A stretch of 61,915 bases of DNA, counting the filler, from Kipferlia bialata (taxonomy: Eukaryota): the NCBI GenBank assembly GCA_003568945.1. It is 3 parts of 3 records of this genome, joined end to end, with 100 filler letters (N's around TTAATTAATTAA, not from the genome) between each part and the next. Parts side by side here need not be neighbours in the genome. Positions count along the whole stretch, not along the records: positions 1 to 25,979 come from BDIP01000201.1; 2 more parts are not named here. One strand, 5' to 3'. Within the stretch, counting starts at the first letter, position 1, and every line of letters starts with the position of its first letter. Below the pieces are notes generated by a model, which was not told the origin of the DNA, did no database searches, and worked only from the letters and a program-made list of their open reading frames with translations. Positions 1,519 through 3,834 of the stretch are shown here, one piece after another. Made by a program: the position numbers and the translations under genes.

Positions 1519-3834
1519 ATGAACTTCTGGACCCCCCTGATCACTTCAGCAGTGCTGCTGGTGATCTACCATGGGCTGGACTTCTACCTGCAGTTCCGGT
1601 ACCACCGCAACACTGTCTCCTTCAGCTGTACGTACAGTGATGTCAGAGGGTATATATATATATAGTGTGTATTCCCTGACAGACATCTCACTCTTTCATG
1701 GCCGCTGTCAGCATATCCTACTGTACTCTGATAGCCGTGAATGTGCTATATTTAAAGGGACATGTGTGAGAGTTGTGTACTGACTACTCTATACACTGTG
1801 CCATATATACTAACCCCAGCCCTACTGATCACCCCCCAGTATGTCCTTGCCCTGCTGGTGGGCATTGGGGAGTACCTGCTGGAGTGGCTCCTCATACCCG
1901 GATTCAAGGTACATTAGAAGAGTGTATATCATGTAGGGTCGTATCCATACATGTGTCCGCAAGGTACACATACTCTGGTGGATGACATACCGTATGTGGT
2001 GTATATTCCCTTTGTCACGGCCCCCTCACCCCCAGTCTTCCTCCTTTGCCTCTCTGTGCTATGTCCTAGGCCTCACCGTTGCTGTGGTCGGTGACACATT
2101 CAGGTATCAGGATCACTATCACTGTCAGTACCGACAGACACAATGATCAGGTATCAGTGTCTTCTTATATTACACTGCCCCTGACCTTCAGGAAGCTTGG
2201 CATGGTGCACAACAACGTAGGGTTCACACACCTGATTGCTAGGTACAGATATAGTATATAGTGTGTGGTATATGGAATGTTTTCGGGATTGCAAGGTATA
2301 TGGTATGTAATACAGGGTAACAGAATGAGACTCACACTTCTATACTGTACCTGATTGCTAGGTACATGGTACAGGGTAACACGTTAGGATCACATTTCTA
2401 CTCTGTACAATCCATACATATGAGTGTCTCTTCTCTTCCCTCACCCCCCAGGCGGAGGCGTCCTGAGCACACCCTAGTGATGTGTCAGTTATACTATATT
2501 AAAGTATTACTAGTACATGTATATATTGTCATTATTGTATACATGTTGCTTACCACTAGACAGAGGCGTCCTGAGCACACCCTTGTGACAGATGGGGTGT
2601 ACTCACTGTGCAGACACCCGGGATACGCAGGTATATATATATATATATATATATATCATAGTATACATGTGTATGTGACCTAGTATACTACTGTATAGGT
2701 GCATCTATATATGTGTACTCACTGTCCAGACACCCCAGGATACGCAGGTATATGTATATTTACATACACATAGATATGCTACCCAAGTGACGTGGCCCTC
2801 TCCCTGCATGTCTATATACATTTAGATCTACTTTATGCTTTATTAGATATTTTATATGTACCTCACCCCCAGGCTGGTTCTGGTGGTGTCTGGGCGTTGC
2901 TCTCCTCATATATATATATATGTATGCCTATTGTGTATACTATATATACCTTATACCCAGGCTGGTTCTGGTGGTGATGTGCATTGCTCTGCCTCTCTCT
3001 CTCTGTATATGTATACCTATTGTGTATATTATTTATACCTCACCCCCAGGCTGGTTCTGGTGGTGCCTGGGCGTTGCCCTGATGCAATGCAATCCCTTCA
3101 CCCTGGTCGCATATGCAGTCGTGTCGTGGCGCTTCTTCTACTCGGTATGGACATATAGATACCTACACTGTAAGTACCCTAGTGCAGACTATTGATGCTT
3201 TTCATCATGATTGTATACTAATTCATACACACTATGTGTTCTCCTCGCTATCCAATATACCCTTATACATGTAGGTGTAGACTACCTCTATGTACATATG
3301 TGTATACATGTTCCTCCTCTAACCCCTATGCGCATCCAGACCGAGTGGTATATACAATTCTACATGTATATTGGATATACATATGTTTATACATAAATGA
3401 CCCCGCTGACCCCAGCGCATCCAGACTGAGGAGTACTACCTGGTGTCATGGTTCCAGAGTGACTACACAAAGTATGGATGAGTATATATACTATATATGT
3501 ATATATGTCTGACACACACATTCACATGTATTATATGTCATGGTTCCAGAGTGACTATACAAAGTATGGGGATGTGTATATACTAAATTTGCATATCTAT
3601 CTGTATCTGTATATATCTGTACTTTGCTATAACCTTCACCCCCATTCCAGGTACCGCAGCGCTGTCCCCTCCATGAACACCCTATACTATAGCATATATT
3701 CAAATATATCCATATTTGTACTATTCTTATCCCACCCCAGGTACCGCAGTGCCGTCCCCTCTCTGATCCCCTTCCTGGACCGTGCCCTAGGTATATCACA
3801 CAGGGCAGACGGGAAGAGGAGGAAGGTGGACTAG
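1519..3834 (+). CDS. ICMT: Isoprenylcysteine carboxyl methyltransferase (ICMT/Ste14), about 8 exons
   Basis: Spliced product MNFWTPLITSAVLLVIYHGLDFYLQFRY...EYLLEWL...GDTFRKLGMVHNNVGFTHLIARQRRPEHTLVTDGVYSLCRHPGYAGWFWW...CNP...WRFFYSRIQTEEYYLVSWFQSDYTKYRSAVPSLIPF. It has the ICMT signatures H.LVT.GVY...RHP.Y.G and RI..EE..L..F..Y..Y. Confidence 0.95.

Follow-up and report, generated by a model that had tools for sequence, protein, structure and literature searches.

The window analysed here is a stretch of 61,915 nucleotides from Kipferlia bialata, a free-living fornicate for which 124,912 GU-AG introns have been reported (PMC5874029). It consists of three unrelated scaffolds joined by N-runs at 25980-26079 and 52055-52154, each enclosing a 12-base linker that carries stops in all frames, and it holds further N gaps. 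Using a simple predictor and hand correction, we modelled 14 genes with 121 GT..AG introns and 242 exon ends. Pfam matches backed the ICMT, cyclophilin, dynein, macrodomain and nucleoside hydrolase assignments, while 4 of the 10 pieces scanned had no match. Two of the models could be compared with public Kipferlia bialata proteins, and the agreement was 1387 of 1387 aligned residues for KIPB_001428 and 251 of 257 residues for KIPB_001427, the macrodomain protein. Intronless open reading frames lie on the minus strand at 28203-29085 and 54443-57718, one of them with coding repeats of 33 and 120 nt. The minus-strand gene at 44761-47254 has 12 short introns without echoes (defined below) and a long Thr/Val/Glu/Pro-rich region before its C-terminus, which is putatively GST-like; the exon scanned had no Pfam match. 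A very long minus-strand gene at 13804-25976, with exons of up to ∼3.6 kb and short introns without echoes or near repeats, was left unmodelled (13.8-25.9 kb), so that the echo rates given below are slightly high for the window.

Two sequencing runs from one sample were used. X1 is a DNA run, and X2 was treated as RNA on account of its GT..AG joints, which X1 lacks; its record bears no RNA label. RNA coverage spanned 1500-11760, and the remaining echo-rich genes were modelled without reads. All rates and counts derive from 62 kb of sequence.

Many introns in the window contain truncated copies of the adjoining exon end together with its splice site, which we term echoes. They had been proposed in a sequence-only reading of this DNA, and we confirmed that they are real and more extensive than first stated. 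Searches with queries that included the splice site identified 58 echoes at 41 of the 242 exon ends, or about one in six for the modelled introns of the window, and in 28 of the 121 introns, on all three scaffolds (score threshold of 26; null rate, 0.17% of 4710). Stricter thresholds retained 39-53 echoes. The exon part of an echo had a median length of 28.5 nt (range 11-47, with a single one of 71), and its median identity to the exon was 89%, with perfect identity in 7 of 58. The median period was 97.5 nt, and 81% of periods fell within 75-130 nt. Echoes were concentrated in 6 of the 14 modelled genes, where they marked 7 of 14 exon ends in ICMT, 10 of 22 in the hydrolase gene, 8 of 20 in the macrodomain gene, 5 of 12 in the kelch-like gene, 6 of 20 in the CWC27-like gene and 3 of 6 in the 29.7 kb gene. 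Seven other modelled genes had none in their modelled introns, the dynein array falling outside these. No permutation out of 5000 gave gene-to-gene heterogeneity as strong as that observed; donor and acceptor echoes co-occurred in 13 introns, a count uncorrected for the gene effect. Each of the eight echoes previously listed for ICMT was recovered, along with an older ninth at about 2287, and those described for the dynein, CWC27-like, 29.7-31.3 kb, macrodomain, nucleoside hydrolase and kelch-like genes were all present (Table 1). The kelch-like name is presumptive and comes from the sequence-only reading and a motif.

Table 1. Echo-bearing genes of the window and individual echoes, in coordinates of the whole stretch
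Feature	Position	Strand	Details
ICMT gene, 8 exons	1519..3834	+	Pfam PF04140 on two exons
ICMT exons	1519-1627, 1820-1908, 2036-2103, 2192-2242, 2560-2630, 3050-3144, 3416-3471, 3741-3834	+	
Older donor echo of exon 2192-2242	2287-2305	+	
Donor echo of exon 2192-2242	2349..2367	+	13/13 exon nt, GT kept; skipped in X2
Acceptor echo of exon 2560-2630	2440..2480	+	Skipped in X2
Donor echo of exon 2560-2630	2713..2772	+	32/34; skipped by record length
Two acceptor echoes of exon 3050-3144	2848..2992	+	29/31, 27/32; skipped by record length
Acceptor echo of exon 3416-3471	3320..3350	+	AG lost; X2 joint 3143>3415
Donor echo of exon 3416-3471	3536..3569	+	27/28; X2 joint 3471>3741
Acceptor echo of exon 3741-3834	3641..3676	+	27/32; X2 joint 3471>3741
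Dynein heavy chain exon 305-389, two donor echoes behind	107..244	-	Pfam AAA_lid_11
CWC27-like cyclophilin gene	8538..11731	-	9 echoes in modelled introns, one more at 11699-11731
Gene without Pfam family	29752..31341	+	3 echoes; modelled by hand, without RNA
Macrodomain gene (KIPB_001427)	31660..35600	-	14 echoes, arrays of up to 3; modelled without RNA
40-intron gene (KIPB_001428)	35958..44508	+	Echo-poor, 2/80 exon ends, plus exception at 39733/39829
Nucleoside hydrolase gene	48576..51995	-	15 echoes in modelled introns; Pfam match; modelled without RNA
4-copy donor echo array, nucleoside hydrolase gene	50958-51316	-	
Presumed kelch-like gene	58308..60923	+	7 echoes; no Pfam match on exon scanned; modelled without RNA

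We compared the placement of the copies with exon-only queries of 40 nt and a score of at least 24. A copy was found in the intron downstream for 22 of 121 exon ends and in the intron upstream for 18 of 121 exon starts, giving 40 of 242 exon ends in the polar orientation. In the anti-polar orientation, matches numbered 1 in 65 and 1 in 67 for the two tests (Fisher P = 1.6e-6), and nonadjacent introns matched in 0.1% of 5909 comparisons. The consistent order of the copies is thus borne out. Its use as the sign of a system is not, since any local direct duplication across one junction that survives must leave the whole exon on the inside and a truncated copy in the intron; we therefore rejected polarity as evidence of mechanism. 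An annotation-blind scan of the window detected 85 near repeats at offsets of 20-200 and 2 at offsets of 1500-1680. A metagenome scan with the dynein exon returned 80 loci, all distant relatives with a best identity of 59%, and so provided no orthologous intron by which to date an echo. The 36 of these loci that span at least 6 kb (383.5 kb) carried 0.73 near repeats per 10 kb, compared to 8.9-16.9 on the three scaffolds; the control is weak, since many of the loci may be transcripts or contain few introns.

Intron growth in the modelled genes is accounted for by echo units. Echo-bearing introns had a median length of 314.5 nt versus 102 nt for the others, and length rose by 100 nt per echo (r = 0.85; 100-125 nt across thresholds). 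Echoes were present in 27 of the 32 introns of at least 197 nt and in 1 of 89 shorter ones. The units covered 5845 of the 19662 bases in modelled introns, or 30%. Removing them left a core with a median of 101 to 151 nt, and whether this core matches ordinary intron length depends on the threshold. No remnant of such a duplication was detected in the 93 ordinary introns (44-nt identity, 10.6 versus 10.8), and the idea that these were born by the same process was rejected for want of a signature.

An echo unit consists of an exon end of ∼28 nt and a TA-rich spacer of ∼60 nt, recurring at ∼98 nt. The repeat includes the exon-intron boundary. At 11 young single donor sites it took in about 6 intron bases, and identity, at 0.87 to begin with, had sunk to about 0.5 by 5-10 nt from the donor. 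In 10 young single acceptor echoes the intron-side match was no better than for random acceptors, that is, at chance. The spacer resembled the sequence beyond the outermost echo significantly in 2 of 40 testable sites, which is chance level (1 of 41 was too short). Neighboring spacers within arrays were alike in 9 of 17 cases (P = 1e-4 against the 2 of 40), at about 61% similarity. In the ICMT gene the spacers of the two acceptor echoes at 2848..2992 were 80% alike, and those of the dynein array at 107..244 were close copies of each other. Donor-side spacers were much poorer in GC (25%) than ordinary introns matched to them (38%) or the sequence beyond the echo (36%; P < 1e-6), and they were richer in TA than matched intron sequence; the shift on the acceptor side was weak (P = 0.09 versus sequence beyond the echo). 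Of 12 arrays, 9 had an innermost echo that resembled the exon more closely than the outermost one did, with 1 reversed and 2 tied. At least 46 nt separated every echo from the working site and from its neighboring echo.

We asked where the spacer sequence might come from. Spacer 8-mers were found on the same strand of their own flanks at a frequency of 0.139 versus 0.078 (0 of 500 shuffles), a result that decayed tandem copies fit too, and templating from the reverse strand of the flanks was not found (P = 0.14). There was also a faint similarity to the intron beyond (mean z of 0.65; Stouffer, 4.1), with some collinear patches visible by eye. Among 55 spacers of the window, 2466 cross-gene comparisons revealed no shared element family (best score of 66 versus 64 in shuffles); the top 6 matches were of low complexity and the upper tail was somewhat raised. 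An introner, MITE or SINE as the spacer was rejected, as no consensus is shared across the loci of the window.

The 85 near repeats were then sorted by location. Fifty paired an exon or junction with an intron, 27 were intron-intron, 5 lay within one coding repeat, 2 were copies of coding ends in 3′ flanks and 1 was a 27-nt tandem. By eye, 23 of the 27 intron-intron repeats were linked to echoes, and the other 4 rows represented three short tandems. In a simulation of uniform placement, assuming equal rates and neutrality, about 45-52 intron-only and 21 intergenic repeats would be expected to be detectable. We found no repeat with echo anatomy lying wholly inside introns or between genes in the window; sorting by eye left three short tandems in introns and one between genes, with periods of 25-56.

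Two coding ends had been copied into 3′ flanks, at 31264-31341 in the gene at 29752..31341 and at 31660-31690 in the macrodomain gene. The copied regions, 31159-31341 at 105-nt and 31660-31773 at 83-nt spacing, contain no splice site, and they account for two among the roughly 12 coding ends modelled. Coding borders in general, rather than splicing, may therefore be the focus. One of the copies is 79 nt long, longer than any splice echo. This fits the idea, an inference from two cases, that long exon copies are purged only beside splice sites.

The positions of the macrodomain gene's junctions are consistent with its alignment to PDB 8rsi, a solved relative, in which residues 15-256 align without insertions at junctions. 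The public KIPB_001427 model begins inside the echo at 35409-35459, and the open exon at 35521-35600, upstream of that start, looks like the real first exon. In the same gene, the intron at 32431-32576 ends in GAG, with both of its junctions spanned by a 7-nt repeat, and the public protein concurs.

Use of the echo sites was examined in the X2 contigs. Record 9 (762 nt) lists six of the seven ICMT joints, the seventh being set by record length and coordinates, and its joint 2238>2556 (cut +4) bypasses the donor echo at 2349..2367. Record 12 (1454 nt) matched the innermost-site model of the CWC27-like gene to the base in all four listed pieces. Among the joints listed, 17 of 17 echo sites of these two genes were skipped in the dominant contigs, which are assembled forms from which rare forms drop out. 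Scored with matrices from 93 echo-free introns, 8 of the 17 were equal to or above the site used; the ICMT acceptor echo at 2451 scored 18.0 bits versus 7.5 for the used site. That used acceptor (2548-2565) is weak and the first three bases of its exon differ from those of the echo; possibly the acceptor now in use was derived from the spacer, and the earlier consensus acceptor survives in the echo. The earlier proposal that the innermost pair is used thus holds for the dominant ICMT and CWC27-like contigs and is broken by the intron at 39669-39858, where the AG of the inner acceptor is lost and the outer echo copy at 39733 is intact. In our model, as in the public protein, splicing is predicted to take an AG 24 nt further in, and a splice-site shift is possibly under way. 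At most acceptors of the window a branch-point-like motif directly precedes a C-rich acceptor, similar in look to the fused branch point and 3′ site of diplomonads (PMC6679479).

That many echoes keep consensus sites held for donors, with GT kept in 31 of 34, and less so for acceptors, a third of which had lost the AG (kept in 16 of 24; loss of 8 of 24 versus 3 of 34, P = 0.038). GT retention agrees with the rule, reported for F7 (PMC1557585), that the first donor to appear is the one chosen. Donor echoes would be harmless if the first donor in the transcript is taken, and acceptor decoys are likely skipped in that only a short exon piece follows them, which would imply exon-side recognition and faster decay. 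Acceptor decoys lie first in the transcript, so selection against them would fit the greater loss of AG. The echoes are probably neutral clutter rather than a regulatory device.

Among the systems already described, silent junction-spanning pseudo-sites are known from single human genes, with minisatellites in F7 IVS7 (37 bp), CBS IVS13, 6-16, lamin B2 (100 bp) and PDGF (81 bp) (PMC1557585). As in the account given there, extra copies of a splice site lie in the intron, splicing takes the donor nearest the exon and pseudo-sites are silent or nearly so, and the lamin B2 and PDGF units are close in size to the echo period. F7-type minisatellites are described as homogeneous, many-copy, donor-side arrays in single genes, whereas echoes occur at donors and acceptors in 1-4 copies, their units are mostly exon sequence with a spacer unrelated to the intron beyond, and whole-period head-to-tail homology is the exception outside arrays. 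Break-repair duplications with filler, as described for alt-EJ/SD-MMEJ (PMC7407515, including the rice study of Vaughn and Bennetzen), also consist of a direct repeat around an insert, on a scale of 10-1000 bp, and in the echo unit too the repeat flanks a nonhomologous insert. The insert of such scars is partly patched from local sequence, as the echo spacer may be. The scars are described there with no focus on exon borders and no narrow module of ∼100 nt. Models of intron gain by tandem duplication or break repair (PMC3265369, PMC3296678) likewise involve local splice-site duplication and filler between direct repeats; they create new introns inside exons, whereas echoes lengthen existing ones, and the Rogers model of gain from exonic AG/GT was rejected on this ground. 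In sum, the echo system works like F7-type pseudo-sites and has the anatomy of repair scars, and it is not intron gain. We found no published account of such echoes across many genes or in protists, in a search that covered few subscription papers, and the main text of the Kipferlia bialata genome paper returned no hits for "duplicat".

We hypothesize, at about even confidence, that an echo is one copy of a direct repeat of 30-45 nt, likely left as a one-step duplication-with-filler scar and tolerated by selection. The candidate route would be polymerase-theta-type end joining or slippage-prone re-synthesis: a staggered break or synthesis at the border of GC-rich coding and TA-rich intron sequence could re-copy the exon end, with new filler, partly patched from nearby sequence, added at that step. 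Repeated events at one junction would shift older echoes outward, and unequal exchange between repeats could copy whole units in arrays. Selection likely tolerates the echo as the intact exon remains on its inner side, and the purging of long exon copies next to splice sites is likely. In Supplementary Data 2 of PMC8516963, PolQ is listed for K. bialata and Ku70 is not; PARP has no entry there either, which speaks against this route. The same paper describes metamonads as being without Ku-dependent joining/cNHEJ. Templated and apparently untemplated insertions are hallmarks of alt-EJ, which AT-rich flanks favor (PMC7407515); the link of polymerase theta to echoes is one we infer. In mouse ES cells, by contrast, tandem duplications have been ascribed to cNHEJ (PMC5730883). 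Random repair scars would be expected in intron interiors and between genes as well, so the border focus needs an extra cause.

The sequence-only reading had attributed intron growth to junction-spanning tandem duplication. Growth by about one unit per echo stood, and the plain tandem form did not fit most spacers. A head-to-tail duplication of exon end and adjoining intron, in which TA slippage scrambles the intron parts much faster than the GC-rich echo mutates and gene conversion, with the constrained exon as its source, may renew the echo, is nevertheless a less probable but serious alternative. It would explain the residual same-strand similarity, the alignable spacers of the dynein, ICMT intron 5 and hydrolase arrays and the nearly tandem look of the coding-end copies, and it would account for the lack of intron-only duplicates. 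Against it, echo identity and spacer similarity show no clock relation (rho of 0.007, n = 57), and none of the 14 echoes of at least 95% identity had a homologous spacer, although the test had a power of 96-100% at 10-20% divergence; complex, nonrepetitive sequence beyond perfect echoes is missing from the spacer. On the donor side the supposed copies are unlike in composition, at 12 of 41 sites the remaining core is too short to have supplied the spacer, and the similarity persisting between array spacers indicates that decay is not instant. Finally, exon parts longer than 47 nt occurred in 1 of 58 echoes versus the 46% expected for plain tandem copies, and no echoes were found at short distances. 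A transcription- or splicing-coupled process, with pausing, R-loops or RNA-templated repair aiming modules at exon borders by ordered addition, is quite improbable in our judgment. It would suit the strong deficit in intron interiors and intergenic sequence, a repeat edge within a few bases of the splice site, the narrow period, and the uneven gene distribution with donor and acceptor echoes in the same introns; yet the coding ends were copied at a rate similar to that of exon ends without any splice site, and the intron bases held by donor echoes exclude mature mRNA as the template.

Retention of echoes as working alternative or recursive splice sites, for instance for nonsense-mediated decay, appears very improbable. 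The kept GT and AG dinucleotides would agree with it, as would the premature stop that use of intact echo sites would give in 41 of 47 cases, and decay could hide such transcripts. However, the dominant contigs skip every echo site of the two genes, echoes decay with distance and their substitutions lean GC-to-AT (76 versus 44 changes), and periods are even over the three reading frames (15/15/17). There is no clear excess of AG at exon ends (18 of 22 echo-bearing versus 76 of 99), and exon-start GT shows only a slight excess, given without a statistical test (6 of 19 versus 18 of 102). Assembly stutter at microsatellites, which the sequence-only reading had raised as a way its claim could fail, has a negligible probability. 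The window is indeed rich in (TA)n and (GA)n runs, and the check used assembled contigs rather than long reads, but 51 of the 58 echoes differ from their exon, spacer sequence is unique, and individual X1 contigs run through both echo and exon. These contigs reproduced 1500-2622, 2666-2888, 2859-3065, 3036-9772, 9817-11641 and 11615-11728 with no other letters at an even depth of 384-491, an agreement that amounts to a re-assembly check rather than a second sample, X1 being possibly the source of the window itself.

A bolder reading, which we consider unlikely, is that a recurrent border-aimed process, possibly guided by transcription or splicing, inserts modules of ∼100 nt, each an exon-end copy with freshly synthesized TA-rich sequence, in age order at splice junctions and is the chief means by which introns lengthen across the genome, with a reduced spliceosome ignoring thousands of consensus decoys through exon recognition. 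Since intron definition is expected in a short-intron genome, exon recognition would run against expectation. Reed and Maniatis reportedly found in 1986, in engineered mammalian constructs, that a site beside a shortened exon loses to a site beside a full exon. The echoes are natural instances in a short-intron protist in which 87 of the 174 spliceosomal proteins searched for were found (PMC6679479).

Each echo unit is a visible, datable step of intron lengthening. Echoes also mislead gene finders: the predictor used here made false micro-exons, and the public macrodomain model starts in an echo. If, by extrapolation, the rate seen here holds over the 124,912 annotated introns (PMC5874029), the genome would contain tens of thousands of natural splice-site competition experiments. 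These would make it testable how a reduced spliceosome picks among equal or better decoy acceptors that it meets first, and how Ku-less break repair shapes gene structure.
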